Shown here in pieces: positions 23,266-63,143 of a DNA stretch of 64,000 nucleotides. Positions within the stretch are counted from its first letter, which is position 1, and each line of letters begins with the position of its first letter. The notes under the pieces were generated by a model. The model saw only the letters and a program-made list of their open reading frames with translations, did no database searches and was not told the DNA's origin. Location of the stretch: NCBI RefSeq assembly GCF_024223415.1, contig NZ_CP100503.1; one strand, given 5' to 3'. The stretch is from Escherichia coli. Lineage in GTDB: Bacteria; Pseudomonadota; Gammaproteobacteria; Enterobacterales; Enterobacteriaceae. A program made the translations under genes and the position numbers.

Positions 23266-23487
23266 ATGGCTACTATCCCTACCCCAACTCATCCTGAATT
23301 TATCTGGCGCTTTTACTCCTGCCAAAAACGTCACTATCACTTCGTTATTGCACCAACAGAAGATGAGGCCCGCTCTCAGCTTCCTGACGCCCCATGTATT
23401 TTCTCTGCCCGTTTTTCCACTGATTCACGCAATTCTCTCAGTTACTGGTGCCTCCCTGTTAACGCTTCTGCTCAGGAGGGACTATGA
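23266..23487 (+). CDS. icd: Icd-like small protein
   Basis: 74 aa from ATG at 23266 with AAGGAGG RBS; shares EFIWRFYSCQKRHYHFVIAPTEDEARSQLPDAPCIFSARF with copies B and C; stop overlaps ant start (ATGA). Confidence 0.6.
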   Translation: MATIPTPTHPEFIWRFYSCQKRHYHFVIAPTEDEARSQLPDAPCIFSARFSTDSRNSLSYWCLPVNASAQEGL

Positions 23488-24599: not shown

Positions 24600-24606
24600 T
24601 GGAAGA

Positions 24607-24636
24607 ATGCCCGGTTGATGCCGGGCATAATTTATT
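24607..24636 (+). terminator. Hairpin between convergent ant A and c1
   Basis: ATGCCCGG-TTGATG-CCGGGCAT followed by AATTTATT; same hairpin recurs at 35220. Confidence 0.55.
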
Positions 24637-27128: not shown

Positions 27129-28181
27129 ATGTCTAATGTCCTGACCGTACACCAAAATTTGCCTGCATTACCGGTCGATGCAACGAGTGATGAGGTTCGC
27201 AAGAACCTGATGGACATGTTCAGGGATCGCCAGGCGTTTTCTGAGCATACCTGGAAAATGCTTCTGTCCGTTTGCCGGTCGTGGGCGGCATGGTGCAAGT
27301 TGAATAACCGGAAATGGTTTCCCGCAGAACCTGAAGATGTTCGCGATTATCTTCTATATCTTCAGGCGCGCGGTCTGGCAGTAAAAACTATCCAGCAACA
27401 TTTGGGCCAGCTAAACATGCTTCATCGTCGGTCCGGGCTGCCACGACCAAGTGACAGCAATGCTGTTTCACTGGTTATGCGGCGGATCCGAAAAGAAAAC
27501 GTTGATGCCGGTGAACGTGCAAAACAGGCTCTAGCGTTCGAACGCACTGATTTCGACCAGGTTCGTTCACTCATGGAAAATAGCGATCGCTGCCAGGATA
27601 TACGTAATCTGGCATTTCTGGGGATTGCTTATAACACCCTGTTACGTATAGCCGAAATTGCCAGGATCAGGGTTAAAGATATCTCACGTACTGACGGTGG
27701 GAGAATGTTAATCCATATTGGCAGAACGAAAACGCTGGTTAGCACCGCAGGTGTAGAGAAGGCACTTAGCCTGGGGGTAACTAAACTGGTTGAGCGATGG
27801 ATTTCTGTCTCTGGTGTAGCTGATGATCCGAATAACTACCTGTTTTGCCGCGTCAGAAAAAATGGTGTTGCCGCGCCATCACCCACCAGCCAGCTATCAA
27901 CTCGCGCCCTGGAAGGGATTTTTGAAGCAACTCACCGATTGATTTACGGGGCTAAGGATGACTCTGGCCAGAGGTACCTGGCCTGGTCTGGACACAGTGC
28001 CCGTGTCGGAGCCGCGCGAGATATGGCCCGCGCCGGAGTTTCAATACCGGAGATCATGCAAGCTGGTGGCTGGACCAACGTAAATATTGTCATGAACTAT
28101 ATCCGTAACCTGGATAGTGAAACAGGGGCAATGGTGCGCCTGCTGGAAGTTGACATCCTCCCCCACCTTCGCACTTCGTGA
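27129..28181 (+). CDS. cre: Cre tyrosine recombinase with altered C-terminus
   Basis: 350 aa; matches P1 Cre as I recall it up to ...MVRLLE, then VDILPHLRTS encoded by IS end instead of DGD. Confidence 0.9.
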   Translation: MSNVLTVHQNLPALPVDATSDEVRKNLMDMFRDRQAFSEHTWKMLLSVCRSWAAWCKLNNRKWFPAEPEDVRDYLLYLQARGLAVKTIQQHLGQLNMLHRRSGLPRPSDSNAVSLVMRRIRKENVDAGERAKQALAFERTDFDQVRSLMENSDRCQDIRNLAFLGIAYNTLLRIAEIARIRVKDISRTDGGRMLIHIGRTKTLVSTAGVEKALSLGVTKLVERWISVSGVADDPNNYLFCRVRKNGVAAPSPTSQLSTRALEGIFEATHRLIYGAKDDSGQRYLAWSGHSARVGAARDMARAGVSIPEIMQAGGWTNVNIVMNYIRNLDSETGAMVRLLEVDILPHLRTS

Positions 28182-28200
28182 CTCAGGAGGGGGATTCCCA

Positions 28201-29433
28201 TTAGTGGGTGACGGCTGATTGCTCAGCGTCTGGTTCCTGCTTCAACGGGCGGTCTGACTGCACCGTCCCTCCACAGGCAAGTACGGCGTGCCCCGCCGCT
28301 AAAATGTTGCGAGCGCCGTTTACATCGGCGTTCGCTGTATATCCACAAGCCCGACACACGAATTTACTTTGTGTCAGGCGGTTTTCTTTCGCTGTATGAC
28401 CACAGCACGCGCAACGCTGGCTTGTGTACGCTGGCGGAACAGCAAGCACCTGACCACCACGCCAGAGCTGCTTGTACTCAAGCTGGCGGCGCATTTCATA
28501 CCAGCCCTGATCCAGTATCGAACGGTTTAAACCTGATTTTGCCCGGACATTGCGCCCCGGCTGGCTGACCGTACCCGCTGCTGACTTTGACATGTTGCTG
28601 ACCTTCAAATCCTCAATGACTATCATTGCGTGGTTTTTGCTGACGGTCGTTGTGACTTTGTGAAGGTAGTCCCTGCGGATATTTGCAATACGGGAATGCA
28701 GTTGCTGTATTTTGCGTTTCTGCTTCTGCCAGTTGTTGCTGAATTTGACCCTGCGGCTTAACTGTCGCTGAAGTCTCGCCAGCTTCTTCTGGTTTTTCTG
28801 AAAACTGTTTACAGGTTCAAAGACTGTGCCATCTGACAGCGTGGCGAGTTTAGCCACGCCAGCATCCAGACCGACTATCGTTGTGCTTGTGTGATTTGGT
28901 TCTGCCGTTTCAATTTCAACCTGAAACGAGATATACCACTGTCCCGCTAACTGACTGATTGTCGCATTTTTGATTTTACCGTTCACACGTTGAGATTGCC
29001 GGAATTTTACCCACCCAAGACCTGACGGTAGCTTCACTCTGCGATTTTCAAGGCAGCAATATTTCTCAAAGTTCACAAAACGGATTGAGTCTCTGCCCTC
29101 ATTTTTTCGTTTCCATACCGGAGCCTTAGCTGCGAGCTTTTTATCAAAACAACGTTTCCATGCGGTATGCAGGTCTTTCAGCTTTTGTTGCAGATTGTCG
29201 GTATAAGCATCCTGTAAGAAGATATATTCCGGCATTTTTTTCCACACTGTAATCATCCGGTTCAACTCGAAAGCCGAAGGTAACTTTTCGCCTGAGCCAA
29301 GTACGCGCTTTGTCTCCGCAAGACCTAAATTCCAGACAAAACGGGCGCAACCACATAACTGCCGCAAACGCTGCGACTGTTCATGCGTTGGTTCCAGTCT
29401 GAATTTGTAGGCTTTCAGGATTAGCATCATCAT
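28201..29433 (-). CDS. tnpB: TnpB (OrfB-family RNA-guided nuclease-like protein)
   Basis: 410 aa; C-terminal RuvC-like and zinc-finger region ([13 protein letters not shown]...[18 protein letters not shown]). Confidence 0.85.
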
Positions 29434-29485
29434 TCAGTGTGTAGTAGATTTTCTTGCAATATTACTGTTTTTACGGCCAACCTCA

Positions 29486-29890
29486 ATGCAAAAATACAAA
29501 ATCAATCGTTCAAGACATGCTGCCTTCCTTTTGCATGTTCATCTTGTCTTTGTAACAAAATACCGTCGAAAGATACTGGGAGAGTTACACTGTGCAGCAT
29601 TCCATCAGTATGCAGCAGAAGTCTGCCGTGACTTTGGGGCAGAACTTAAAGAAAGTAACGGAGATGTCGATCATGTCCACATGCTGATCGAATACCCACC
29701 AACAGTGCAGCTTTCGGTACTGGTTAACTCACTGAAAGCAGTGACATCCCGCCGTCTGCGAAACGAATTTCTTGATTTGCGGGGGGCATACGGAAAAGCC
29801 GTGCTCTGGTCGAGGTCATACTTTGCTGGCTCCTGCGGAGGTGCGCCGCTGGAAGTTGTGAAGCAATATATTCAACATCAGCGAGGCTGA
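29486..29890 (+). CDS. tnpA: IS200-type Y1 (HUH) transposase TnpA
   Basis: 134 aa; HVHLVF, HuH motif DHVHMLI, catalytic Tyr region WSRSYFAGS. Confidence 0.85.
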   Translation: MQKYKINRSRHAAFLLHVHLVFVTKYRRKILGELHCAAFHQYAAEVCRDFGAELKESNGDVDHVHMLIEYPPTVQLSVLVNSLKAVTSRRLRNEFLDLRGAYGKAVLWSRSYFAGSCGGAPLEVVKQYIQHQRG

Positions 29891-29995
29891 GCACCCTTCG
29901 GGCTTTTCAAGCCCGTCCAAATTCCCCTGCCGCCTTATGTCGGCGGGAGTACCCTTTGGAAGTTAAGATGGCGATTAGCCATTAACGCGTAAATG

Positions 29996-30554: not shown

Positions 30555-30578
30555 GGCGGCCGAAAGGCCGCCTTTTTT
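30555..30578 (+). terminator. Rho-independent terminator
   Basis: GGCGGCC-GAAA-GGCCGCC followed by TTTTTT. Confidence 0.65.
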
Positions 30579-30580
30579 AA

Positions 30581-31645
30581 TCATTCAGCCGCCACAGGTT
30601 TTAACAAGCCAGCATCGAGCAGTTTACGCGTCAACCACTGCTGGCCTTTCCCCGTTAATTGGGGCGTCAGCCGTATCTGGTAGCCCTCTTCATCATCCAG
30701 CACCACTTCTTTCACTGTGAAATATCCGGCGTTTATGTACTGCTGGAACGGTACATTTTTACGTCCACCGGACGCTATCAGGATGCCGTTCTCCCGTAAC
30801 CAGGCAAACAGCGCGTTTTGCTTAAGTCCAACAACCTTTGCAAAATTCCCAATCAGGATTCCATTAGCCACTGATACCCGGTCGGCAAAATCGACTTTAG
30901 GAGCGGCGGCCACCAGCTGCTGATTTAGCTGGTGGGCTTTCTGTTCCAGAAGTTGCTTTTGTTCAGCCAACTCGGCAGCCAGGCGGAGGGCTTCGGGGAG
31001 TGTCTGGGGGATCGCTGGAGAAGCAGCGCTAACCTGCTGCAACTCCTCCAGCTTGTCGATCAACGAACGGCGGACCGCTTTTGACTCGCGCGCGGCAACT
31101 CGCAGGGCTTGTTTGTAGGTCATGGTTATGACCTCAAAAGAGCGCCCAGCCCTTGTGCCATGGGATTTTACGAAAGTTTCGTAAAATTCCCCATCAAGTT
31201 CATCCTTAATTCTATTGAGAAAATCGTTATTGCGGATCTCATTTTCCCCACATAGCTTGCGCGCCTCATTGACCATCTTTAACAGTGTCTGGCTGTCGAT
31301 TGTGTCGCCCGTACTGGGGATAACATCCATGGCTGGTAGTGGTGTGGATTCTATCAAAGGCTTTGTAACGACAACATCTGGTTTGCTTGCTTTCATTCTG
31401 TGTGCCTCCTTGCGTGCTTCGGCGGTTACGGTTGCATAATCAAGACGACCCTGTTCGAGCAGGTATTCACGGATATCAGTTAGCAGAATGCGGTGAACCG
31501 CGTTCTTGTCCTTTCTCCGGTAAAGTTGTTTGGTGATCATGAAGTAGTTGGCTATAACACCAGGAATGTCCCTGGCGCTGATACAGATTGTGTGCTGTTC
31601 AATAGCCTCGATCATTTCTTCACGGGTAACTAATGACGTTCTCAT
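30581..31645 (-). CDS. ant: Antirepressor Ant paralog B (KilA-C C-terminal domain)
   Basis: 354 aa; N- and C-terminal regions near-identical to Ant A/C, central region resembles Ant D. Confidence 0.7.
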   Translation of the reverse strand: MRTSLVTREEMIEAIEQHTICISARDIPGVIANYFMITKQLYRRKDKNAVHRILLTDIREYLLEQGRLDYATVTAEARKEAHRMKASKPDVVVTKPLIESTPLPAMDVIPSTGDTIDSQTLLKMVNEARKLCGENEIRNNDFLNRIKDELDGEFYETFVKSHGTRAGRSFEVITMTYKQALRVAARESKAVRRSLIDKLEELQQVSAASPAIPQTLPEALRLAAELAEQKQLLEQKAHQLNQQLVAAAPKVDFADRVSVANGILIGNFAKVVGLKQNALFAWLRENGILIASGGRKNVPFQQYINAGYFTVKEVVLDDEEGYQIRLTPQLTGKGQQWLTRKLLDAGLLKPVAAE

Positions 31646-31863
31646 AGCCCCTCCTGAGCAGAAGCGTTAACAGGGAGGCACCAGTAACTGAGAGAGTTGC
31701 GCGAGTCAGTAGAAAAGCGTGCAGAGAAAATGCAGGGAGCGTCAGGAAGCTGAGAACGGGCCTCATCTTCTGTTGGTGCAATGACGAAGTGATAGTGACG
31801 TTTTTGACAAGAATAGAAGCGCCAGATAAATTCCGGGCGTGCGCAAGGATTGGCATTAACCAT
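31642..31863 (-). CDS. icd: Icd-like small protein
   Basis: 73 aa; identical to Icd copy C; overlaps ant B start. Confidence 0.6.
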   Translation of the reverse strand: MVNANPCARPEFIWRFYSCQKRHYHFVIAPTEDEARSQLPDAPCIFSARFSTDSRNSLSYWCLPVNASAQEGL

Positions 31864-32023
31864 AGTTACGGCCTCACAAGTTGAATTAACAACCTGCTAC
31901 CCGCTGTCAAACAGGTGGCAGGACGTGACAGGGTTGACAGACTGGCACTTGTGAAACCAGCAGGCCGAAGCCTCCCCATCACGCCCCACCATAATTCGGG
32001 CGTAACGCGGTTTTACGGACACA

Positions 32024-32170
32024 AAAATACCGCAATAACGGAGTGATGCGGTTGTCCGCACAAGTATTCAGGCTGTCAAACCCGGTCGCAGAATTTGCTA
32101 CGACGCAGGAACTATAAGCCTGAACGACGGGAAGATCAATAGTCTGGCGTCCAATAGTAGTTTATTTGTT
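32024..32170 (-). ncRNA. c4: Putative c4-like antisense RNA of module B
   Basis: Colinear (no indels) with the module C leader; GGTTTGACAGCC element at 32071-32082 (rc). Confidence 0.3.
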
Positions 32171-32181
32171 CCAATAAATCA

Positions 32182-32197
32182 AATTTATTAGAGCAAT
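32182..32197 (-). promoter_or_regulatory. C1 operator of immI-like module B
   Basis: AATTTATTAGAGCAAT on plus strand. Confidence 0.6.
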
Positions 32198-32428
32198 ACA
32201 ATCTGGTTGAATGTTTCCTCTCCGAGGTTGCAATGTGCACACTTATTGTTTTATTTGTATGCACTAATAAATATATTATTTTTAATAATAAATAATTGAC
32301 AACTGACAAGTGACTTCAGTCAGAATCATCACACGCCCGGTACGGATGGATCCCTTTTCAAATATTCCATGGACGGCACAGTCTGAGTACCGGGCGCTAC
32401 CTTCAGTTGTATTGCTAAGCCGCCGCTG

Positions 32429-33097
32429 GTGGCTTTTCTTTTTTGTAGGGGCGCTATGGATAAGAAAATATGCGTTGTTTCAATGTGCGTCGGCAAACCG
32501 GCGTCAATGACTGCTGCATGGATCAACAATGAGCTGATCATGGCTGAGCGGACCAGCTACCCTGAACGCCGCCGCGATATGGAACTCCAGCTGCTGCGCG
32601 AATTGCGAGAAAAAGAGGAAAAGGGTTTTATCGTGCTGGTGGAAGAGGAAAACAGCTTTATTACCGGTCGAGTTGGCCAGCGTGTAAGGTTGCGTGATCC
32701 CTTCATGAACGGCAGACCGGTACTGATTGAAGCAATGCAGATTTACAAGGAATTGGAACGCCAGAAAGCGATCAAGTTACCGCGCAAGGAATCCGGCAAA
32801 TACATCCTTCACCAAAGCATCTTCGATTCCGAACACGATAAAAAAGGCGATGAATTTTTCAACATCAACTGGAGCGAAATAACGACAGAGCACGTTCTGA
32901 CGTTGTTATGCTGCTTCGCAACGGAATATAACAACGTTGCAAGCGCCGACTACATCAGGGCAATGGCTGGAGAAGTTGAGGCACGCCAGGAACCATCGTT
33001 ACTAAGCCCTCTGATTAACATAATTCGCGGCACACAGAGACTTGCGGAAAAAAGCGTTCCACACGGAATCTTAACTGGGAAGGGAAACTATTTTTAA
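32429..33097 (+). CDS. Hypothetical protein
   Basis: 222 aa from GTG; ATG at 32456 (MDKKIC) may be the true start. Confidence 0.4.
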   Translation: MAFLFCRGAMDKKICVVSMCVGKPASMTAAWINNELIMAERTSYPERRRDMELQLLRELREKEEKGFIVLVEEENSFITGRVGQRVRLRDPFMNGRPVLIEAMQIYKELERQKAIKLPRKESGKYILHQSIFDSEHDKKGDEFFNINWSEITTEHVLTLLCCFATEYNNVASADYIRAMAGEVEARQEPSLLSPLINIIRGTQRLAEKSVPHGILTGKGNYF

Positions 33098-33547: not shown

Positions 33548-33564
33548 ATTGCTCTAATAAATTT
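33548..33564 (+). promoter_or_regulatory. C1 operator of immI-like module C
   Basis: ATTGCTCTAATAAATTT, perfect consensus. Confidence 0.65.
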
Positions 33565-33574
33565 GATTTTTTAG

Positions 33575-33721
33575 GGCAAATAAACTACCATTGCGCACTG
33601 CCCTATTGATCTCCTTACCGTTCAGGCTTATATTCATGCCGTCGTAGCAAATTCTGCGACCGGGTTTAGCAGCCTGAATACTTACGCGGACAACCGCAGA
33701 TATCCGATATTGCGGTATTTT
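33575..33721 (+). ncRNA. c4: Putative c4-like antisense RNA of module C
   Basis: Leader with GGTTTAGCAGCC (33663-33674) and hairpin ACCGCAGA-N-TGCGGT plus ATTTTC (33693-33721); complementary element CTGCTAACC at 33805-33813. Confidence 0.3.
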
Positions 33722-33881
33722 CATGTCCGTATAACCGCGTTACGCCCGAATTATGGTGGGGCGTGATGGGGAGGCTTCGGCCTGCTGGTTTCGTAAGTGC
33801 CAGTCTGCTAACCCCGTCACGTCCTGCCACCTGTTTAGCAGCGGGTCGCAGGTTGTTTTATCAACTTACGAGGCCGTAACT

Positions 33882-34103
33882 ATGGTTAATGCCAATCCTT
33901 GCGCACGCCCTGAATTTATCTGGCGCTTTTACTCCTGCCAAAAACGTCACTATCACTTCGTTATTGCACCAACAGAAGATGAGGCCCGCTCTCAGCTTCC
34001 TGACGCCCCATGTATTTTCTCTGCCCGCTTTTCCACTGATTCGCGCAACTCTCTCAGTTACTGGTGCCTCCCTGTTAACGCTTCTGCTCAGGAGGGACTA
34101 TGA
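33882..34103 (+). CDS. icd: Icd-like small protein
   Basis: 73 aa from ATG at 33882; stop overlaps ant C start. Confidence 0.6.
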   Translation: MVNANPCARPEFIWRFYSCQKRHYHFVIAPTEDEARSQLPDAPCIFSARFSTDSRNSLSYWCLPVNASAQEGL

Positions 34104-35212
34104 GAACATCGTTAGTTACCCGTGAAGAGATGATCGAGGCAATTGAACAGCACACTGCCTGTATCAGTACCAGGGATATACCGGGCGTTATTGCCAACTA
34201 CTTCATGATCACCAAACAACTTTACCGGAGAAAGGACAAAAACGCGGTTCACCGCATTCTGCTAACCGATATCCGTGAATACCTGCTCGAACAGGGTCAT
34301 CTGAATTACGCAACCGTCGCAGCCGAAGCACGCAAGGAGGCACACAGAATGAAAGCAACTAACGTTAAATCAGAAAAAATTTATGCACCTTCAGTTCAGG
34401 AATCGGAACTGGTGGTTGTTCAGAATCAGCCGGATGAAATTCCCGTTCTGGAATGGCAGGGAGTACGTGTCGTGACAACCGAAACTCTTGCTAGAGGGTA
34501 TGGGACCGAAACTAATAACATCAAAGTTAACTATACGCGTAATGCTGATCGCTTTGAGGAAGGTAAACATTACTTTCTACTAACTGGTTCAAAATTAAAA
34601 GAATTGAAGGACAAGGTTACTCAAAGTAACTTAGTCGCACCGCGAGCAAAGCACCTCACTCTCTGGACGGAACGCGGCGCAGCCCGCCACGCTAAAATGC
34701 TCGAAACCGATCAGGCATGGGCATTCTTTGAAAAACTGGAAGACAGCTACTTCCGACAAAAAGAACAGCAACCGATCGCAATCCCCCAGACGCTTCCTGA
34801 AGCTCTGCGCCTGGCTGCCGAACTGGCTGAACAAAAGCAACTTCTGGAACAGAAAGCCCACCAGCTAAATCAGCAGCTGGTGGCCGCAGCCCCTAAAGTC
34901 GAGTTTGCCGACCGGGTATCAGTGGCCAAGGGGATCCTGATTGGGAATTTTGCAAAGGTTGTTGGACTTAAGCAAAACGCGCTGTTTGCCTGGTTACGGG
35001 AGAACGGCATCCTGATAGCGTCCGGTGGACGTAAAAATGTGCCGTTCCAGCAATACATCAACGCCGGGTATTTCACGGTGAAAGAAGTGGTGCTGGATGA
35101 TGAAGATGGCTACCAGATACGGTTGACGCCCCAGCTAACTGGGAAAGGCCAGCAGTGGTTGACGCGTAAACTGCTCGATGCTGGCTTGTTAAAACCGGTG
35201 GCGGCTGAATAA
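34100..35212 (+). CDS. ant: Antirepressor Ant paralog C (KilA-C C-terminal domain)
   Basis: 370 aa; closest to Ant A throughout. Confidence 0.7.
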   Translation: MRTSLVTREEMIEAIEQHTACISTRDIPGVIANYFMITKQLYRRKDKNAVHRILLTDIREYLLEQGHLNYATVAAEARKEAHRMKATNVKSEKIYAPSVQESELVVVQNQPDEIPVLEWQGVRVVTTETLARGYGTETNNIKVNYTRNADRFEEGKHYFLLTGSKLKELKDKVTQSNLVAPRAKHLTLWTERGAARHAKMLETDQAWAFFEKLEDSYFRQKEQQPIAIPQTLPEALRLAAELAEQKQLLEQKAHQLNQQLVAAAPKVEFADRVSVAKGILIGNFAKVVGLKQNALFAWLRENGILIASGGRKNVPFQQYINAGYFTVKEVVLDDEDGYQIRLTPQLTGKGQQWLTRKLLDAGLLKPVAAE

Positions 35213-35219
35213 TGGAAGA

Positions 35220-35245
35220 ATGCCCGGTTGATGCCGGGCAAAAGG
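35220..35245 (+). terminator. Hairpin after ant C (same as at 24607)
   Basis: ATGCCCGG-TTGATG-CCGGGCA. Confidence 0.5.
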
Positions 35246-35973: not shown

Positions 35974-38900
35974 TTATGCGTATTGTTGGATGACGGCCAG
36001 AACGTCCGCCACGTTGTGTTTTGTCTCGATAATCCACCAGTTACCCGGGAAATCGCTGTTCTTCGCCTTCGCTGGCAGCCAGCGAGCGCCGAATTTCGCC
36101 TTGATTGCGTCTTTCGCACGGAAAAGAACCCCTTTCATGCCTGAGGCTTCCTGAAGCCCAAATACCTCGCCAGCGGCGAATTTTGGTGCGTACATCATCT
36201 TCAGGTCGGCGGTGGATACGCGATAATTCAGGCCAAGAGACTGAGCTATGCTGGTGGCATCACCCTGTATTGATGATAACTCTTCTTGTTTCTCGTTTCT
36301 GGCGGCAATCTCTTCCTCCGTGATGTTGCCAAGGGCCAGGTTTATCCGATCAGCGTCGGCCTGTTTCTCTTCATCGGTGCGCCCGGCAAGAACCGTGTTA
36401 ATTCTCTGCAATATCTCCACATGATTCTTGCGCATGCTGAGCAATTCCGGCGTAACCTCGTTAAGATCCACCAGCCCAAGGATGGCAAGGTCGGAAAACA
36501 TTGATACCAGGTTGTAGGTCATGCGATAGCTGAGTTGACCATAGGCTGATGGCAACTTCACCGCATCCATTTGATAGGCATCCATAAATTTAGAGCCGTC
36601 GTTTACGACATCCGCTATTGCAGGTGTGATTTTCCCTGTGGTGGCGGCCTCCCTGATTGCTGTTACCCACGATTGAGTCAGCGCGGCGACTGCATGATTC
36701 AGATTGGCTTTCCGTTCTGCTGCGATGCGCGCGCTTGCTGCGTCCATTGCCTGCTTGATCTCGGCTTTATTGCTGTAAATGCCAATGGTGCCAAACTGTG
36801 CTGTGGTGATCTCATAATCTGACGCCCGGAACTCATTGGTACCGAAAATGGCATTGGTGACTTCAAGTTCAGAATCCCCGTTACGAGTAGCCCCCTGGCT
36901 TGTTTTTTCCGGCATTCTGGCGATCGCATCCGCTATTTTCTCCTGAATTGCTTCAGGGGATAGCGTATCTCCGTATGACGCGATTACATCGCCATAATTG
37001 GAGCCAAACAATTCAACCAGGAATGTTTCTGCCGAACGGATCTGGCGGTTATTCCCTTCCGACATCATACCAAGCACCCATTTTGCAATTGACGACTTCA
37101 GCGCGCCGTCACGGCGATCCGGGTAAACCGCATGCTTCAGTGGGTCCGTATAGGTACCAACAAAATCAATGCTATAGCCTGACTCTGTAGTCTGAACGCC
37201 GTATGAGTCAGTGATTTTGATCATGCCGCGCTGCTGGAAACGGTAGAAATCGTCACAGGAAATGATGTCGTTAATCCCGGCGATGGAGACGCCACCACTG
37301 ATTTTCTGCATAACAGCATCTTCATCGGGAGTTACATCCACCTGTTTATCCAGCGTCTTCACATCCCAGTTACCCGATTTGGTGCCTTTGAAGGTAAAGA
37401 TGATCTCCACGTCTGCGCGCTGGCTGTCGAAGTCCAGCGACTTAATGCGAACGATATCACCGGCACAATCGTAGTATTGGCCTACACGCCATGAGCGATC
37501 GCCGATAACAAGGAACTCACTCGCATGGTTAACCAGGTCAGGATCAACATCCAGAATGCCTTTATTTATTGCATCCTCCACCAGCGGGCGCAGGCGTTTG
37601 ATATCCGTCGCGGCCTTCTGAGTACGGTTCAATAATTTCTCATAGCGGGAGATGGCTTGAGAGATATTAGCCTTGCGCTGAATGGCGTTTTTCAACGACG
37701 CGCGATACTGTGCTAACAACATACGGTCTGTGTGATGGACGCTCCCCCAGCGGGCCTTCCAGTCTGCGTTATCAGCTGCTTTGGCCATTACCGCCTGTTT
37801 GAATTTAGCTACCTCGGCGGTGGTCTTTTCAAGTTCCGCTTTGCTTCGCTCTAATTCAGCGGTAAGTACCTCCACATCCTCGCCAGCTGCGTGCTGCGCC
37901 TTGATGTAGTTCTGAAGGTCGATAGTAGCCTGTTCTTTCTGGCGAGCGCGTTGCGCGGCTTTCGCCTTATCCATTTGAACCTGCATCATTGCCAGACGTT
38001 CGCCATCATCCTTAGCGGTATACATCTGCATTTCGATCATATCGTTGGCGTCGGCGTTCTCCATTTCAGACTTATCTGAGCGGAGGATATCGGAGATCCA
38101 GCCTGCTTTACGCTTCAGCGTCTTCAGTCGGTATTCATCGAAAGAACCCTTGCCGCAGTAGTAGTGAACGCGAACGCTTGCACGGTTGGAACCAACTCGG
38201 GCACCGCGACCGTTACGCTGTGCGATACTGGCTGGTGTCCATGGCAACGTCAGATGATGGATGTCAGTCGTTCCTCGATGCAGGTTGATACCCACCTCTG
38301 CCTTTTTGTTGCAGATGATGATCGGAGTCCGGCCCTCCTGGAAGTCGGCAGCAATCTTTTCCAGCCCACCCAGCGACATTTCATTTTGCTGCGCGATATA
38401 GGCGTCATACAGAGCCATTTGCTCGTTGTATTTCGCTATCTGTGCATCTGTTGGTTCATCCGGTAGCTCTTTCGGCGGTTTAACCGCTTTCAGTTTCTTA
38501 CCGGTTTTACCTGCCTCGGCAACCGTCTGAGCATTCAGGATCCCCACCTTTGAAGGTTCAAGGTTAAGAGCATTGCAGATAATGCGCTTGAGCTTCTGGT
38601 GTTGCGTTTTTTCATCGGTGAAGATGATTTGCTTACCTTCCGGGAAAAACTCCTTCAGCGTGGCGATCAGCTTCGCGTATTTCGGCGTAACGGGGTGAGT
38701 TACGGTCTGTTCGTCAATGCCAAACCTGGCCAGGCGCTTATTCACTTCCTGCTCGAACGCTTCCGGAACCTGCAACTGAATAAACTCGCCCTTATCTATC
38801 AGGGAGTATTGCGATTGCTGCGTGATCGAATCATCACTGTCGTCGTCTTCGCTGGTGGCTTGTTTAGGCAAACTGTCCGCCAGCTGCTGCACCGCATCGG

Positions 38901-40863
38901 CGTACTCCGGCAGGAAACGATAGGTGATCCTGCGATAGTACAGGTCCATGTCAGTACATACGCGGTCCATATCCCTGATTATTGAGAAGATCGGACGGGC
39001 TTTCTCGTGCTCAATCACGCCGTCTTCATTGACCGAGGTCGTTACGCCATTGTTGGCTTTGGCTGCCGCTTCCGCCTGCTGACGCAATTCTTCATACGCC
39101 GCCAGTTGTTCTTCCGTAAGTGGTGCATCCTGCTGGTGTTCGTCCAGTTCCGGGATCTCCACGGTATCCTTAACGTCTTCCGCCGTTTTAAGCGTTGTCC
39201 AGCGATGGAATATGCCGCGCAGCGCATCAAGGTTTTCAAAGCCCACCAGCGCCATTTTTTCTTCAACTTCACCGCTAATTTTCTGTACCGTTTCCAGCCT
39301 GGTCTTGCCGAAGAATTTAACGAAGTCATCAGGACCGTAGATCCCCATCTTCTGCCAGTATTCCTTCGGCAGCACATGAGAAAGCATGTTGTATGCATCG
39401 ATCGGGGTGTTAACGACTGGCGTTGCAGTCAGGAGAACCGGTCCGCGCCCACCATTCTTTTTCATCAGGTACGCGTTTTTAATTGCCATATCCCGCGCCG
39501 ATTGCGCCACCGCGCTGGTGGGCAGATAGGCCAGTTGTGACGCTTCGCGACCATTTTTATAGCTATTGCGGTAGTTGTGACCTTCGTCAGCGATCACACT
39601 ATCGAAGCCCATATCCTCAAAGTACGGATACTTCTCTGCTTTTTCGGTGCCGGTATCTGAATACTCCGACAATACCCGGCGACGCGCGGCCTCTTTGCGG
39701 TGGGAGTCGGAGTCCATTGCGCTGGCTACGCGCCCGGCGGCAACGAAGTCATAAAGCATATCCTGTGCATGCTCATCTACGGTGTCATCACGTAGCGGAA
39801 TGCGGGCGTATTGTTCTTTGGTAAACACGACTGCACGGTAATTTGAGTGCGGGATCGCGTTCATCCGCGCCGTGATAGTGGCTTCATCTGCCAGCTTAAG
39901 AGCATCGCGCATAACTGGAGTGCCATCAGTACCAAGAACAGGTTTACCGTTCTCATTGAGCACCGGCACCTGGCGAATCTGATCGCCATCCATCAGCACA
40001 TCAAGACCGACGAACAGGTAGTTACTGAATGCCTCTTCACTCAGGAACTCTTTTGCTTCGTAATACCAGTTTTCCAGCACTGATTTAGGCACTACATACG
40101 CAGTACGGGTGGAACGACCGTTCTCATAGTTGAACGCCTCAAGCGCCAGCGCGGTCGTGGTTTTACCCAGCCCGGTACCGAAGCCCAGGATGCCGCGCCC
40201 ATCTTCGGACAGTCGGCGCACCTCGCTATTCTGGTAATCAAATGGCTGTCGCTTACCGCTTAATCCCTTCAACCCAAGCGGATCGCCAGAGTGTTCATAC
40301 GGGATATTGCTATTGAACACATCGTTGTATTTGGCAACCAGCTCATCGTAGCGATCGTGCGTCTTGATCCACTTATTGAACTGGTCCTCAAGCAGTGCCA
40401 TCTGCTCGCGGTAGCCGTTCGCCGTCGCGCTATCTTTGCCACCGATACGCGCACCATTGAGATACTTTTCCAGCTGTGCCGGGAACCCGGTCGCGTTTTC
40501 ACCTGATTTACGGTCCCACTCGTAGCGGATCTCGCCTGTTTCTTTATCCTTGCGCTGGACGACACCGTATCGGTGCCCGACGAACAGACCATCACCACCG
40601 TGATAGGTGTCAGAAACCATTTCGTCGCCTTCCAGCTGCACTGACTGCACATAGCGAAGATCCGGATAGCCGTTTTCCTGCAAAAATTCCAGAATGACGG
40701 AACGGTCGAACCAACGGCTATTGAGCTTAAAGCGGATATTCTCTGCTGGCGTCTTGATGCGCTTCTCTTCGATCGCTGCCAGCTGATTAAGGACGTTGTT
40801 CTTTACCCAGTGCGCCGTAAAGCCCCGTCCTTCAGGTCGGGGATATAAGGCGCGGTTTTCCAC
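35974..40863 (-). CDS. Large SF2 helicase-domain protein, 5'-truncated by IS insertion (DarB-like anti-restriction candidate)
   Basis: 1629 codons; Walker A GFGTGLGKTT, DEGH box, TATP, QRNGRGARVGS; first 19 codons (40807-40863) are IS left-end sequence, host-derived part starts at 40806. Confidence 0.5.
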   Translation of the reverse strand: MENRALYPRPEGRGFTAHWVKNNVLNQLAAIEEKRIKTPAENIRFKLNSRWFDRSVILEFLQENGYPDLRYVQSVQLEGDEMVSDTYHGGDGLFVGHRYGVVQRKDKETGEIRYEWDRKSGENATGFPAQLEKYLNGARIGGKDSATANGYREQMALLEDQFNKWIKTHDRYDELVAKYNDVFNSNIPYEHSGDPLGLKGLSGKRQPFDYQNSEVRRLSEDGRGILGFGTGLGKTTTALALEAFNYENGRSTRTAYVVPKSVLENWYYEAKEFLSEEAFSNYLFVGLDVLMDGDQIRQVPVLNENGKPVLGTDGTPVMRDALKLADEATITARMNAIPHSNYRAVVFTKEQYARIPLRDDTVDEHAQDMLYDFVAAGRVASAMDSDSHRKEAARRRVLSEYSDTGTEKAEKYPYFEDMGFDSVIADEGHNYRNSYKNGREASQLAYLPTSAVAQSARDMAIKNAYLMKKNGGRGPVLLTATPVVNTPIDAYNMLSHVLPKEYWQKMGIYGPDDFVKFFGKTRLETVQKISGEVEEKMALVGFENLDALRGIFHRWTTLKTAEDVKDTVEIPELDEHQQDAPLTEEQLAAYEELRQQAEAAAKANNGVTTSVNEDGVIEHEKARPIFSIIRDMDRVCTDMDLYYRRITYRFLPEYADAVQQLADSLPKQATSEDDDSDDSITQQSQYSLIDKGEFIQLQVPEAFEQEVNKRLARFGIDEQTVTHPVTPKYAKLIATLKEFFPEGKQIIFTDEKTQHQKLKRIICNALNLEPSKVGILNAQTVAEAGKTGKKLKAVKPPKELPDEPTDAQIAKYNEQMALYDAYIAQQNEMSLGGLEKIAADFQEGRTPIIICNKKAEVGINLHRGTTDIHHLTLPWTPASIAQRNGRGARVGSNRASVRVHYYCGKGSFDEYRLKTLKRKAGWISDILRSDKSEMENADANDMIEMQMYTAKDDGERLAMMQVQMDKAKAAQRARQKEQATIDLQNYIKAQHAAGEDVEVLTAELERSKAELEKTTAEVAKFKQAVMAKAADNADWKARWGSVHHTDRMLLAQYRASLKNAIQRKANISQAISRYEKLLNRTQKAATDIKRLRPLVEDAINKGILDVDPDLVNHASEFLVIGDRSWRVGQYYDCAGDIVRIKSLDFDSQRADVEIIFTFKGTKSGNWDVKTLDKQVDVTPDEDAVMQKISGGVSIAGINDIISCDDFYRFQQRGMIKITDSYGVQTTESGYSIDFVGTYTDPLKHAVYPDRRDGALKSSIAKWVLGMMSEGNNRQIRSAETFLVELFGSNYGDVIASYGDTLSPEAIQEKIADAIARMPEKTSQGATRNGDSELEVTNAIFGTNEFRASDYEITTAQFGTIGIYSNKAEIKQAMDAASARIAAERKANLNHAVAALTQSWVTAIREAATTGKITPAIADVVNDGSKFMDAYQMDAVKLPSAYGQLSYRMTYNLVSMFSDLAILGLVDLNEVTPELLSMRKNHVEILQRINTVLAGRTDEEKQADADRINLALGNITEEEIAARNEKQEELSSIQGDATSIAQSLGLNYRVSTADLKMMYAPKFAAGEVFGLQEASGMKGVLFRAKDAIKAKFGARWLPAKAKNSDFPGNWWIIETKHNVADVLAVIQQYA

Positions 40864-41280
40864 CTAACCAGGTGTTTGCTGTTGTTCAATGTATTGGCGG
40901 ATGATGGATATTGGTGCGCCACCGCAGCTACTGGCAAAATAGCTGGGACTCCATAAAACGCCTTTGTAGTAATATCGGGCTGCAATATCTGGTCGATCTC
41001 GTCGCAATAATCTACTCGATACGCCCTTGAGACTGTTCACCAGGCTGGATATCGCCAATTTGGGGGGATAGTTAATTAGCAGGTGAACGTGATCTCGTTC
41101 TCCATCCATTTCAACCAGTTCAGCTTCAAAATCAGCACATACACTTGAAAAGTAAGTGCGTAGTTTTTCTATTGCGTCATGGTCAAAAATCTGACGTCGG
41201 TATTTTGCGACAAAGACCAGGTGAACGTGCATCAGGAAGACGCAGTGTCTTCCACGTCGGATATCAGTTTCTTTTTTTAT
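40864..41280 (-). pseudogene. tnpA: IS200-type transposase tnpA with start codon changed to ATA
   Basis: Copy 3 has ATG at the equivalent position (63558-63560); copy 2 has ATA at 41278-41280; ORF track only finds a TTG-initiated 178-aa extension. Confidence 0.5.
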
Positions 41281-42511
41281 GGACCAAAGTATAATTTGGC
41301 TTATGAAACGACTACAAGCTTTCAAATTCCAGTTAAGACCAAATGGACAGCAGGAGCGTGAAATGAGGCGCTTCGCGGGCGCATGTCGTTTCGTTTTCAA
41401 TCGTGCTCTGGCGCTTCAGAATGAGAATCATGAGGCCGGGAACAAATATATTTCTTATGCAAAGATGACTTCCTGGCTGGTTGAATGGAAAAATGCTACT
41501 GAAACGCAATGGCTTAAAGATTCTCCCTCACAGCCATTGCAGCAGTCACTGAAAGACCTTGAGCGAGCCTACAAAAATTTCTTTCAGAAGCGTGCCTCTT
41601 TTCCCCGCTTCAAAAAGCGGGGACAGAATGATGCATTCCGCTATCCGCAGGGCGTTAAGCTCGACCAAGGGAACGGTCGTATTTTTCTGCCAAAACTTGG
41701 CTGGATGCACTACCGGAACAGCCGTCAGGTCTCGGGGATTGTGAAAAACGTCACTGTCAGCCAGTCCTGCGGTAAGTGGTACATCAGTATTCAGACAGAA
41801 AGTGAAGTATCAACTCCGGTTCACCCTTCAGCATCAATAGTCGGTCTGGATGCAGGCGTGGCTAAACTCGCCACGCTGTCAGATGGCACAGTCTTTGAGC
41901 CTGTAAACAGTTTTCAGAAAAACCAGAAGACGCTGGCGAGACTTCAGCGACAGTTAAGCCGCAAGGTCAAATTCAGCAACAACTGGCAGAAGCAGAAATG
42001 CAAAATACAGCGACTGCATTCCCGTATCGCAAATATCCGCAGGGACTACCTTCACAAAGTCACAACGACCGTCAGCAAAAACCACGCCATGATAGTCATT
42101 GAGGATTTGAAGGTCAGTAACATGTCAAAGTCAGCAGCGGGTACGGTCAGCCAGCCGGGGCGCAATGTCCGGGCAAAATCAGGTTTAAACCGTTCGATAC
42201 TGGATCAGGGCTGGTATGAAATGCGCCGTCAGCTTGAGTACAAGCAGCTCTGGCGAGGCGGTCAGGTGCTTGCGGTTCCGCCAGCGTACACAAGCCAGCG
42301 TTGCGCGTGCTGTGGTCATACAGCGAAAGAAAACCGCCTGTCACAAAGTCAATTCAGATGCCAGGTATGTGGATATACAGCGAACGCCGATGTAAACGGC
42401 GCTCGTAACATTTTAGCGGCGGGGCACGCCGTTCTTGCCTGTGGAGGGATGGTGCAGTCAGGCCGCCCGTTGAAGCAGGAACCCACCGAAATGATTCAGG
42501 CGACAGCCTGA
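41279..42511 (+). CDS. tnpB: TnpB
   Basis: 410 aa; C-terminal 230 aa nearly identical to tnpB at 28201-29433, N-terminal half divergent. Confidence 0.85.
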
Positions 42512-42592
42512 ACGTAGCAGGAATCCACGTCCTTCAGGGCGTGGAGGATGTCAATGGAGCCTCCCCTTCTCTGCCGACGTTCAGGGGGGTTT

Positions 42593-43630
42593 ATGAAAAC
42601 ACCTCTCGTCACCCGTAATGACATAGCCGAAGCGATCGCCCTGCATACTGCCTGTATGCCGACACGGGAGATCCCCGGCGCAATTGCCAACTATTTCATG
42701 ATAACCAGACGTTTTTATACCCGAACAGATAAGGCTGTGATCAACAAGCTACTGATAGCCGAGATCAGGGATTATTTGATTGAACAAGGACGTCTACGTT
42801 ACGCAACAGTGGCAGCAGAAATGAGAAAGGAGGCACATAGAATGACCGGTAATAATTTAAATGTTGAAAAACCAGCACCTGTTGCTTCAGCTACGCCAGC
42901 ACCAGCCGTGAATATCATCCCCAACACCGGAGACACAATCGACAGCCTGACACTGTTAAAGATGGTCAATGAAGCGCGTAAGTTATGTGGGGAACCAGAG
43001 GTTCGGAACAACAAATTCATCGAAAAAATACTCGATGAGCTTGATGGTGAGCACTACACAAAAAGTGTAGTGGAAAAAATGAACAAAACATCAATGCTTG
43101 TCATAACCATGACTTTCAAACAAGCCCTGCGAGTCGCCGCGCGCGAGTCAAAAGCGGTCCGCCGTTCGCTGATCGACAAACTGGAAGAATTACAGCAGGC
43201 AAACTCACCTACCCCATCGATCCCCCAGACATTACCAGAAGCCCTACGCCTGGCTGCCGAGTTGGCAGAACAGAAAATGCAGCTGGAACAACAGCTGGTG
43301 GCCGCAGCCCCTAAAGTCGATTTTGCCGACCGGGTATCAGTGGCCAATGGAATCCTGATCGGGAACTTTGCAAAGGTCGTTGGACTTAAGCAAAACGCCC
43401 TTTTCTCATGGTTGCGCCAGAACGGCATTCTCATGGCTTTTGGTGCGCGCAAAAACGTACCGCGCCAACAGTACATCAACGCCGGGTATTTCACGGTGAA
43501 AGAAGTGGTGCTGGATGATGAAAATGGCTACCAGATACGGCTGACGCCCCAATTAACGGGTAAAGGCCAGCAGTGGTTAACTCGCAAGCTACTTGATGCT
43601 GGTTTGTTAAAACCAGTAGCAATAGGTTAA
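42593..43630 (+). CDS. ant: Antirepressor Ant paralog D at the native position upstream of kilA
   Basis: 345 aa from MKTPLVTRND; preceded by 38 bp remnant of icd 3' end (…LPFSADVQGGL*) then the IS right end. Confidence 0.7.
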   Translation: MKTPLVTRNDIAEAIALHTACMPTREIPGAIANYFMITRRFYTRTDKAVINKLLIAEIRDYLIEQGRLRYATVAAEMRKEAHRMTGNNLNVEKPAPVASATPAPAVNIIPNTGDTIDSLTLLKMVNEARKLCGEPEVRNNKFIEKILDELDGEHYTKSVVEKMNKTSMLVITMTFKQALRVAARESKAVRRSLIDKLEELQQANSPTPSIPQTLPEALRLAAELAEQKMQLEQQLVAAAPKVDFADRVSVANGILIGNFAKVVGLKQNALFSWLRQNGILMAFGARKNVPRQQYINAGYFTVKEVVLDDENGYQIRLTPQLTGKGQQWLTRKLLDAGLLKPVAIG

Positions 43631-43643
43631 CAAAAGAAAAAAA

Positions 43644-43667
43644 CCTGCCAGCAAACTGGCAGGTTTC
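43644..43667 (+). terminator. Rho-independent terminator after ant D
   Basis: CCTGCCAG-CAAA-CTGGCAGG followed by TTTC. Confidence 0.6.
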
Positions 43668-43708
43668 TGAGCAGATCGTCCAACCCGATCTGGATCGAGC
43701 CAGAAAAA

Positions 43709-43725
43709 TTTGCTCTAATAAATTT
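43709..43725 (+). promoter_or_regulatory. C1 operator upstream of kilA-repL
   Basis: TTTGCTCTAATAAATTT. Confidence 0.65.
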
Positions 43726-43794
43726 CGTTTTCTAAGTGCAAAGAATCACCATTTCGAGCTGGTGATTGAAGGTTGATGCAAATTTGGAGAAAAA

Positions 43795-44595
43795 ATGCAA
43801 CAAACATTCAATGCGGATATGAATATATCAAACCTTCATCAAAATGTCGATCCTTCAACCACTCTGCCTGTTATTTGTGGTGTTGAAATTACGACCGACC
43901 GCGCTGGCCGTTACAACCTTAATGCTCTACACAGAGCGAGCGGACTCGGTGCCCATAAAGCGCCAGCTCAATGGCTAAGAACGCTGTCAGCCAAACAGCT
44001 CATCGAAGAGCTGGAAAAAGAAACTATGCAGAATTGCATAGTTTCGTTCGAAGGCCGTGGCGGCGGCACTTTTGCCCATGAATTGCTCGCTGTGGAGTAC
44101 GCAGGCTGGATTTCTCCCGCGTTTCGGCTGAAGGTAAACCAGACATTTATCGACTATCGAACCGGAAGATTACAACCTGCTATTCCGCAGAGTCTCCCTG
44201 AAGCTCTCCGTTTGGCTGCCGACCTGGCAGAGCAAAAGCAACGGCTGGAGCAAAAAATGCTTATGGATGCACCTAAAGTCGAATTCGCTGAACGCGTTGC
44301 TACCGCCAGCGGGGTTCTAATCGGCAACTATGCCAAAGTGCTCGGCCTGGGCCAAAACTATCTCTTCACCTGGTTGCGTGATAACGGAATTCTGATCGCA
44401 ACCGGTGAACGCAGGAACGTCCCCAAACAAGAATACATATCTCGTGGGTATTTCACCCTTAAAGAAACCGTGATCGATACAAGCAATGGAAGCAGGATTT
44501 CTTTCACGACTCGTATAACCGGCAAAGGTCAGCAGTGGCTGATGAAGCGATTGCTTGATGCTGGTGTGCTGGTACCTGTCGCGGCAACGCGCTAA
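43795..44595 (+). CDS. kilA: KilA (KilA-N domain plus KilA-C domain)
   Basis: 266 aa, size and position as in P1; C-terminal domain homologous to Ant C-termini. Confidence 0.75.
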   Translation: MQQTFNADMNISNLHQNVDPSTTLPVICGVEITTDRAGRYNLNALHRASGLGAHKAPAQWLRTLSAKQLIEELEKETMQNCIVSFEGRGGGTFAHELLAVEYAGWISPAFRLKVNQTFIDYRTGRLQPAIPQSLPEALRLAADLAEQKQRLEQKMLMDAPKVEFAERVATASGVLIGNYAKVLGLGQNYLFTWLRDNGILIATGERRNVPKQEYISRGYFTLKETVIDTSNGSRISFTTRITGKGQQWLMKRLLDAGVLVPVAATR

Positions 44596-63128: not shown

Positions 63129-63143
63129 GGCGCGGTTTTCCAC

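Follow-up and report, generated by a model that had tools for sequence, protein, structure and literature searches.

The window, a 64,000-nucleotide stretch of DNA from Escherichia coli, was collinear with P1 when the two were aligned, IS copies being the only exceptions. Judging from this alignment, it is a P1-type phage-plasmid with two kinds of IS200/IS605 "peel-and-paste" elements. The first kind is represented by copy 2, an IS609-like element of 1748 bp (40807–42554, plus strand) between P1 darB and P1 icd. Both of its ends are exact, as the P1 match runs up to 40806 and resumes at 42555. Copy 3, in P1 dmt after TTTTAC, is cut by the window end at 64000, so that its first 914 bp are visible (63087–64000, plus strand). 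A third piece, the copy 1 fragment, consists of the final 39 bp of a right end with identical sequence (1–39, plus strand) and is followed by P1 sequence lying directly after TTTTAC in intact P1; this fragment is probably the tail of copy 3 read across the junction of a circular molecule. The second kind is a cre-type element of 1818 bp (28150–29967, minus strand), delimited by comparison with the empty site of P1 at the coordinates that the preliminary description had given.

Copy 2 begins directly after TTAC (40803–40806, plus strand) at the end of the retained part of darB, where two P1 reference genomes have gttcTTTAC|tggacc. Its ends carry subterminal imperfect palindromes and not terminal inverted repeats. 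The left-end palindrome (40812–40853, plus strand; DNA fold z -3.6) includes the tetranucleotide AAAG (40819–40822, plus strand) 5' of the inner stem. The right end (42521–42554, plus strand; z -3.5) consists of GAAT, a hairpin (approximately 42524–42545), and AGGATGTCAA, which ends in the TCAA cleavage site. The palindromes of the cre-type element gave z scores of -3.1 at the left end and, more weakly, -1.4 at the right end. Between the ends of copy 2 lie two divergent genes whose start codons are separated by 22 bp, and a promoter scan around the start codons found nothing above background. The tnpA gene (40864–41280, minus strand) has 138 codons, intact except that codon 1 is ATA, and encodes a Y1 HUH transposase. 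Pfam Y1_Tnp was matched with E values of 3.5e-42 (copy 2 TnpA) and 6.6e-38, NCBIfam transpos_IS200 was also matched, and IS608 TnpA (2a6m) aligned with copy 2 TnpA at E 4.5e-21, including the HUH (HxH) motif and the catalytic tyrosine (QY motif). The tnpB gene (41303–42511, plus strand) encodes a protein of 402 aa that matched Pfam OrfB_IS605 and Cas12f1-like_TNB as well as NCBIfam guided_TnpB, the E values for the last being 7e-117 (copy 2 TnpB) and 8e-108. The RuvC D/E/D motifs and a zinc finger are present in the TnpB of both copy 2 (D181/E266/D361, two CxxC) and the cre-type element. The corresponding tnpA of copy 3 lies at 63144–63560 on the minus strand.

The preliminary description had noted TTTAC before both left ends, as is seen at copies 2 and 3, and had proposed IS608-type targeting. 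The sequence bears this out, with TTAC on the left, TCAA on the right 10 nt 3' of the hairpin, and AAAG as the guide; in IS608, AAAG guides TTAC (PMC3201880). Insertion took place 3' of a fixed tetranucleotide, and the empty site in cre shows no target-site duplication. TTAC was found 5' of five copies of the copy 2/3 lineage and at four P1 sites, and TTAT 5' of three IS609 copies. Across the relatives, the guide AAAG occurs with a TTAC target and AAAA with a TTAT target, which matches the IS608 rule. The copy 2/3 lineage would thus insert after TTAC because its left-end guide reads AAAG. Relative to oriR, the five sites, considered by hand, have mixed orientations, and their number is too small for judging a lagging-strand bias.

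Copy 2 resembles IS609 in its length of 1748 bp, its divergent tnpA and tnpB, its right end (96–99% identical over 71 bp), its TCAA cut, and the 3' half of its tnpB (98% identical). In contrast, the left 1 kb is 90.6% identical, and the target and guide are TTAC and AAAG instead of TTAT and AAAA; for IS609, the published left cleavage site is TTAT and the right one TCAA (PMC6906374). The tnpA start has also moved, from an upstream ATG plus GTG in IS609 to an ATG at codon 1. Two copies on E. coli plasmids were 99.7% identical to copy 2. Isoforms in ISfinder usually share nucleotide identity of about 95% or more; the overall identity of copy 2 to IS609 (PGAP-named and chromosomal copies) is only 93.6–93.8%, and its target differs. 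By these comparisons, copies 2 and 3 belong to an IS609-related lineage carried on plasmids. The similarity to IS608 of Helicobacter pylori lies in the TTAC left site and target, in TCAA 10 nt past the hairpin foot, in the AAAG guide, and in a homologous TnpA. However, tnpA and tnpB of IS608 run in the same direction and overlap, whereas those of copy 2 are divergent as in IS605; TTAC is 16 nt from the inner hairpin foot in copy 2 and 19 nt in IS608, and there is no nucleotide similarity between the two. ISEc46, annotated near ant1 in phage RCS47, was considered as a name for either element and rejected, since the sole match of RCS47 to copy 2 and the cre element is at its insQ near ddrA.

Considered by themselves, a start-codon change in a single IS copy and a mosaic IS are unremarkable; both are ordinary transposon biology in a known family. 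A position-by-position comparison of copies 2 and 3 from 40802 and 63082 found one mismatch in 919 bp of common sequence, a span made up of 5 bp of flank and 914 bp of the 1748-bp element (52% of copy 3 is visible). This mismatch, T at 41278 against C at 63558, is the single-base difference previously proposed to remove the tnpA start of copy 2. Read on the minus strand, codon 1 is ATA in copy 2 (41280–41278) and ATG in copy 3 (63560–63558), and reading through the N-termini gives S-I-KKETD and S-M-KKETD, respectively. Codon 1 is ATG in the four related plasmid copies (H1, H2, L007, and L008), and all relatives fetched have either ATG at codon 1 or GTG plus an upstream ATG; PGAP annotation of close relatives begins tnpA at the codon-1 ATG. 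Canonical IS609 has GTG at codon 1 and ATG five codons upstream, the latter codon being ATT in the copy 2/3 lineage. No ATG, GTG, or TTG lies near the tnpA N-terminus in copy 2, and the next in-frame ATG, Met17, falls within the region homologous to IS608 TnpA, which begins at residue 11. A loss of TnpA expression from copy 2 is therefore plausible, and so is the earlier suggestion that copy 2 is non-autonomous. Because AUA initiates translation in E. coli at approximately 1–2% of the AUG level (10.1101/063800) and the same protein is encoded by copy 3 in trans, copy 2 would be crippled yet mobilizable, and not dead. A C-to-T change on the top strand would have turned its only usable tnpA start into ATA and left it with about 1–2% of the normal amount of transposase, reliant on copy 3 and with its ends and tnpB intact.

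Alternatively, ATA may be a sequencing or polishing error, in which case copies 2 and 3 would be truly identical and both autonomous. The T at 41278 follows six T residues, so that the change from TTTTTTC to TTTTTTT at the end of a homopolymer could be a consensus error, and copy 2 shows no other decay. An exact match to the ATA variant was found in none of five collections (complete E. coli genomes, PLSDB, IMG/VR, GTDB representative genomes, and JGI metagenomes). The ATG version was present in six plasmids each in complete E. coli genomes and PLSDB, largely the same records, and had no exact match in IMG/VR, GTDB representative genomes, or JGI metagenomes. However, the change is a substitution, whereas homopolymer errors are typically ones of length; the assembler held the two copies apart; and a very recent mutation is equally expected to be unique and unaccompanied by decay. 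We thus regard an error as unlikely, if still worth bearing in mind, and a genuine start-codon mutation as the better reading; a SNP landing on the start codon is a 3-in-1748 event, seen here once.

The cre-type element carries tnpA at 29486–29890 (plus strand) and tnpB at 28201–29427 (minus strand), both with Pfam and NCBIfam matches, and interrupts cre 11 nt short of its stop codon. Its target is CCAT (29968–29971, minus strand; ATGG on the plus strand), which precedes seven of seven cre-type copies, at unrelated sites. GGTA in the left end as the guide for CCAT is suggestive only, since the hairpin foot must then be placed two bases further out than the predicted stem. An element in the filamentous phage If1 (U02303, 5311–7137) matches the cre element at 97.3% identity across the full 1818 bp; it differs in its insertion site and is annotated only as "ORF348", not as an IS. 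By these likenesses, the cre element is a separate IS of the If1 type with CCAT as its target.

The two kinds of element share a sharply bounded segment of tnpB. A 652-nt block of the cre element (28232–28883, minus strand), derived from an IS609-like sequence, is 96% identical in nucleotides to 41832–42483 (plus strand) of copy 2, where it encodes the RuvC and zinc-finger half of TnpB (aa 177–394), and identity outside the block is approximately 50%. At the protein level, TnpB of the two elements is 93.6% identical over aa 177–394 and 37.6% identical over aa 1–176, and TnpA is 52.6% identical. The preliminary description was thus right in calling the N-terminal half of TnpB and tnpA divergent; its value of about 95% for the last 230 residues of TnpB was slightly generous, although identity there is indeed high. 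The last 8 aa of TnpB and the right end are divergent again, and identity matrices gave approximately 50% for the left part, 94–97% for the block, and 57% for the right end. The boundaries of the block are abrupt, within about 10 nt, and the step from approximately 50% to 96% and back is far beyond chance. All E. coli copies of the cre-type element have the block, the one in phage If1 included, whereas in Salmonella and wastewater relatives it is only about 84% identical. This distribution shows that an ancestral transfer ran from an IS609-like donor to the cre-type lineage and, by this evidence, predates the present plasmid. The recombination between related elements that had been proposed is therefore supported by the sharp mosaic, but not as an event between these two copies. 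In a cre-type ancestor, gene conversion would have replaced the nuclease half of tnpB with 652 nt of an IS609-like element, and the ancestor would have retained its own ends, tnpA, and N-terminal half of TnpB.

The block could instead have stayed alike through strong purifying selection on a region coding for both protein and RNA. Even in relatives taken as unconverted, it is about 84% identical against approximately 50% elsewhere, the segment 42174–42480 is 95–98% identical in all lineages, and a guide-RNA scaffold probably overlaps the last 100–130 nt. However, outside the block the SKent and ECO95 elements are the nearer relatives of the cre type (left part 95% and 89% identical, respectively), whereas within it they are no nearer than IS609 (84%); selection could not create such a phylogenetic conflict. 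The abrupt boundaries also argue against selection, and the block is not unusually constrained, because half of the differing codons are non-synonymous. Selection without recombination is accordingly very improbable. The transfer reading suggests that the nuclease half, exchanged at least once, is an interchangeable cassette. IS609-like chromosomal sequence was detected in 5015 of 5426 E. coli genomes and would be a ready donor for it. The N-terminal half, which by analogy with solved TnpB structures would read the TAM, has remained with the ends and transposase of its own element. The close relatives form a natural series, in which the target (TTAC or TTAT) shifts in step with one guide base (AAAG or AAAA) and a third element has a different left end with CCAT; this is a wild counterpart of the engineered "retargeting" of IS608.

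Neither IS609-like copy appears to be a simple insertion when compared with P1; both are at deletion junctions, a point missed in the preliminary description. Copy 2 joins darB to icd with 34 kb missing, its flanks corresponding to positions 8782 and 42879 of MH422554, and copy 3 together with the fragment at 1–39 flanks a 5.4-kb gap. All four breakpoints lie directly after TTAC in intact P1. As TTAC occurs once per 269 nt, the two right-hand coincidences would arise by chance with a probability of about 1.4e-5. The history that we infer starts from four insertions at TTAC sites in darB, in icd, in dmt, and 5.4 kb beyond dmt. Homologous recombination between directly repeated copies would then have removed segments of 34 kb and 5.4 kb, and what remained would be a defective plasmid of about 65 kb. 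Had the source assembly mis-joined flanks across the 1.75-kb repeats, the deletions would not be real. The same darB-IS-icd junction was found neither in complete E. coli genomes nor in IMG/VR. Neither these searches nor one with a concatenated junction query found a P1-like plasmid in which one of the four sites held an insertion that had not recombined; the junction query was confounded, in that left- and right-end pieces of ordinary copies were merged into one match. CP043746, the best candidate for an intermediate, proved to carry an unrelated tnpA-less derivative at another TTAC site.

That no four-insertion intermediate was found in these searches fits another route as well, in which there were only ever two insertions and TnpA itself made the deletions; in such a one-ended "adjacent deletion", it would link one inserted copy, by its right end, to a TTAC lying far off on the same strand. 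TnpA joining predicts right-hand breakpoints directly after TTAC in intact P1, as both are, and integration by IS608 joins the TCAA 3'-OH to the DNA 3' of the TTAC that the left-end guide recognizes (PMC3201880). However, an identical sequence is expected if two ordinary insertions underwent homologous recombination. Moreover, the TnpA reaction needs single-stranded DNA, and 34 kb far exceeds the single-stranded stretch at a replication fork. No transposase-made adjacent deletion was found described for the IS200/IS605 family in the literature searched. We consider the TnpA route distinctly improbable; if true, IS200/IS605 elements would be able to delete tens of kilobases without host recombination. 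With homologous recombination as the preferred route, the picture as a whole, comprising start-codon loss, AAAG/TTAC targeting, an ancestral tnpB mosaic, and recombinational deletions, is in our judgment likely to be correct. Two small IS copies would then account for the loss of about 40 kb, and since the 34-kb segment held all head, tail, and lysis genes, this loss of particle-building genes would turn a phage-plasmid into a plain plasmid.

The TnpB proteins may add a further relation to P1. They belong to the same family as ISDra2 TnpB, with the same RuvC D/E/D motifs and zinc finger, and by analogy with ISDra2 (PMC8612924) a guide RNA (omega/reRNA) would be expected from the tnpB 3' end, the right end, and the flank, with a TAM equal to the transposon target. 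In copy 2 the predicted region is 42384–42570 (plus strand), with approximately 16 nt of flank (TGGAGCCTCCCCTTCT...) as the guide. The predicted TAM is TTAC for copy 2 and CCAT for the cre type, unlike the TTGAT of ISDra2. The RNA fold of this region gave a z score of -2.3, and Rfam matches to HgcC (E 0.008; 24 bits against a cut-off of 50) and sot0042 (E 0.05; 19 against 88), both RNAs overlapping tnpB 3' ends, were below threshold. Each of the three predicted guide RNAs has its match in an intact sequence of wild-type P1 (icd, cre, or the 5.4-kb site), and an active TnpB would thus be expected to cut incoming unmodified relatives of P1.

Comparison with related elements and with the phage-plasmid P1 bore out the observations of the preliminary description and supported its interpretation overall, with refinements. 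It had stated that two IS200/IS605 copies differ by a single base that removes the tnpA start codon; these are IS609-like and lie at 40807-42554 (copy 2; 1748 bp, with tnpA on the minus strand and tnpB at 41303-42511 on the plus strand) and from 63087 to the window end (copy 3). In a base-by-base comparison of the sequence from 40802 with that from 63082 to the window end, which spans 914 of the 1748 element bp because copy 3 is cut there, T at 41278 versus C at 63558 was indeed the sole mismatch, and it changes codon 1 of copy 2 tnpA (minus strand, 40864-41280) from ATG to ATA. The four relatives nearest to copy 2, of which two are E. coli plasmids sharing 99.7% identity and the others share 97.8% and 96.6%, all have ATG here, and PGAP starts a tnpA of 417 nt at it. 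Canonical chromosomal IS609 has GTG at this codon and an annotated ATG start five codons upstream; the plasmid lineage has ATT at that upstream codon, so that copy 2 retains neither start. The next in-frame ATG is Met17, and because homology to the crystallised IS608 TnpA begins at residue 11 and the NCBIfam model begins at residue 8, a product initiated at Met17 would be truncated. The proposed non-autonomy of copy 2 is thus plausible insofar as the only usable start is lost, but since AUA initiation in E. coli reaches about 1-2% (0.02-3%) of AUG (10.1101/063800), the mutation would be a strong knock-down rather than a null. Copy 2 is otherwise unaltered in tnpA, in tnpB, and at both ends, and with the same TnpA protein encoded by copy 3 it should still be mobilisable in trans. 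The exact ATA sequence was not found in complete E. coli genomes, PLSDB, IMG/VR, GTDB representative genomes, or JGI metagenomes, and the change is therefore either very recent or an error beside a T run. The 22 bp separating the divergent tnpA and tnpB start codons contain a small palindrome, CCAAAGTATAATTTGG (41284-41299), with a perfect TATAAT; it received no call in a promoter scan, and it might mask the ribosome-binding region of tnpA or provide the -10 element of a near-leaderless tnpB transcript.

Copy 2 is 93.6-93.8% identical to elements named IS609 by PGAP, and, of 5426 complete E. coli genomes, 5015 contain IS609-like sequence. Its TnpA is a Y1_Tnp, its TnpB is a guided TnpB with D/E/D motifs and two CxxC, and single-strand folds place subterminal hairpins at both ends. 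The right end is laid out as GAAT-hairpin-AGGATGTCAA, which puts TCAA 10 nt past the foot of the hairpin, at just the spacing seen in IS608 (PMC3201880). On the left, TTAC precedes five copies of the copy 2 lineage and TTAT precedes three chromosomal IS609 copies; Venturini et al. likewise gave TTAT as the left site of IS609 and TCAA as its right site (PMC6906374). Immediately 5' of the inner left hairpin, the TTAC lineage has the tetranucleotide AAAG, whereas IS609 has AAAA. Since IS608 uses AAAG as its guide to TTAC and can be retargeted predictably by guide changes (PMC3201880), the earlier analogy with IS608-type insertion proved right in mechanistic detail. Copy 2 and its lineage represent a naturally retargeted IS609 relative, not an IS609 isoform. 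Both this element and the one in cre are members or variants in a well-understood family, and one main point of interest is this natural covariation of guide and target. In a 97.8% relative (L007; NZ_CP095127.1, 301-340), the left-end guide region reads TTATAT, not GTAAAG; with this change the left palindrome has its internal loop perfectly paired with ATATAA, and the guide is possibly destroyed. The flank has one extra C. Derivatives in which a left end of about 60 bp is fused directly to tnpB occur in other phage-plasmids (L021, CP043746.1, 2530-3867; RCS47, 31248-32480; SJ46, 38229-39461), so the IS609-like plasmid lineage commonly loses tnpA while keeping tnpB. The tnpA-less derivative in L021 lies after TTAC.

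P1 is collinear with the window, which keeps cre, the 3' 70% of darB, icd/ant1, kilA, repL, parAB, repA, and phd/doc. Positions 1-39 are identical to the final 39 bp of the IS609-like right end; the window thus starts 39 bp short of an IS right-end terminus and breaks off after the first 914 bp of an IS copy. Because the P1 map is crossed exactly once, the simplest reading is that the window probably makes up almost all of a circle of about 64.8 kb, and that copy 3 and the fragment at 1-39 ('copy 1') may be one element. Where P1 has ref and res/mod, there are several diverged c4-icd-ant/kilA-type immunity modules (23293-24610, 30570-32197, 33548-35223, and 42893-44541) in both orientations, with repeat families D1-D4 and I1-I8; their identity is 78-95% to one another and 80-88% to the icd/ant module of P1 itself.

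Comparison with P1 (MH422554 numbering) placed a deletion junction at each IS609-like copy. At 40806/42555, darB runs up to the left end of copy 2 and stops at P1 position 8782, and the sequence on the right resumes at 42879, in icd; the intervening 34 kb, from the darB N-terminus through c4/icd with the portal, lysis, tail-fibre, baseplate, tail-tube, and sim/c4 genes, is not in the window. At 63086/(1-39)40, copy 3 comes after P1 position 61651 in dmt, and P1 resumes at 67007 after the right-end fragment, with loss of 5.4 kb from the 3' part of dmt through the ban region. In intact P1, all four breakpoints lie directly after TTAC (gttcTTTAC, cttagTTAC, aacTTTTAC, and attacTTTTAC), as checked in two reference genomes for darB and icd. 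On the breakpoint strand, TTAC has a frequency of one per 269 nt. The probability of finding it by coincidence before both right-hand breakpoints is about 1.4e-5, which argues that the deletions are IS-dependent. An assembly mis-join across the 1.75-kb repeats would mimic such deletions. The simplest history would be that four copies inserted and direct repeats then recombined homologously, although plasmids with unrecombined insertions at any of the four sites were not found in complete E. coli genomes or IMG/VR. Joining of the right end to a distant TTAC by the transposase would give the same sequence, and we consider this route improbable. The deletions at both copies make the replicon a defective P1 derivative without the head, tail, and lysis genes of the 34-kb segment, and such IS-dependent loss of phage morphogenesis genes is a second main point of interest.

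The element in cre (28150-29967) lies 11 nt ahead of the cre stop codon, with a 3-nt ambiguity relative to intact P1 that six other copies of its lineage (cre-type) at unrelated sites settle: the element starts CTTAACTTCC, terminates GGAGGATGTCAA, and is always preceded by CCAT. Target duplication is absent at the cre insertion, and from end to end the element shares 97.3% identity with an unannotated one in filamentous phage If1. GGTA just 5' of the left hairpin would pair position by position with CCAT; because the predicted left stem begins two bases further in than this pairing needs, a guide role for GGTA is suggestive only. At the cre 3' end (28140-28180, plus strand), ten IS-encoded codons (VDILPHLRTS-stop) take the place of the final three codons of Cre (DGD-stop); the rest of Cre is intact, and the protein may still function.

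By global alignment, copy 2 and the cre element are about 50% identical to 41831, 96% identical over 41832-42483, and again about 50% identical to the end, except for the final 12 nt. Their TnpB proteins share 37.6% identity over aa 1-176 and 93.6% over aa 177-394, and their TnpA proteins share 52.6%. The block begins at the first RuvC aspartate motif and ends past the zinc finger. Its codon differences comprise 12 synonymous and 12 non-synonymous ones, which argues against selection alone as the explanation of the mosaic. Outside the block, two relatives of the cre element on wastewater contigs (SKent and ECO95) match it at 95% and 89%, but inside the block at only about 84%, no closer than IS609, whereas every E. 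coli cre-type copy, like the If1 copy, carries the IS609-like block at 94-97%. These identities show that the cre-type lineage obtained the block from an IS609-like donor before the E. coli and If1 copies diverged. The proposed recombination between related elements is thus upheld by the sharp 96% block, but it was ancestral and not an exchange between these copies inside this replicon. SKent shares only 42174-42480 with IS609-like elements (95-98%), and identity between copy 2 and IS609 is 98% within the block versus 90.6% on the left, which suggests repeated conversion tracts ending near 42483, where the element-specific right end begins. This modular exchange of the TnpB nuclease half is a third main point of interest.

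The ISDra2 guide RNA derives from the 3' end of tnpB together with the right end and about 16 nt of flanking sequence, and the ISDra2 TAM is the same as the target of the transposon (PMC8612924). By analogy, guide RNAs of the same origin, with TAM equal to target, are predicted for copy 2 and the cre-type element. Rfam matches to HgcC and sot0042 at 42384-42565 were sub-threshold and fold z-scores were modest. A RAGATH-18 match, also sub-threshold (28 bits, cut-off 44.9), falls within the shared block of both elements, close to the 3' end of tnpB (42438-42481, plus strand; 28234-28277, minus strand). The predicted guides TGGAGCCTCCCCTTCT (42555-42574), TGTCCGCGATGATACC (40-59), and CTTCCAGCAGGCGCAC (28130-28149, minus strand) are identical to unoccupied sites of wild-type P1 in icd, 5.4 kb beyond dmt, and in cre, which adjoin TTAC, TTAC, and CCAT, respectively. 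Hence, if TnpB is active, unmodified P1 relatives would be targeted.
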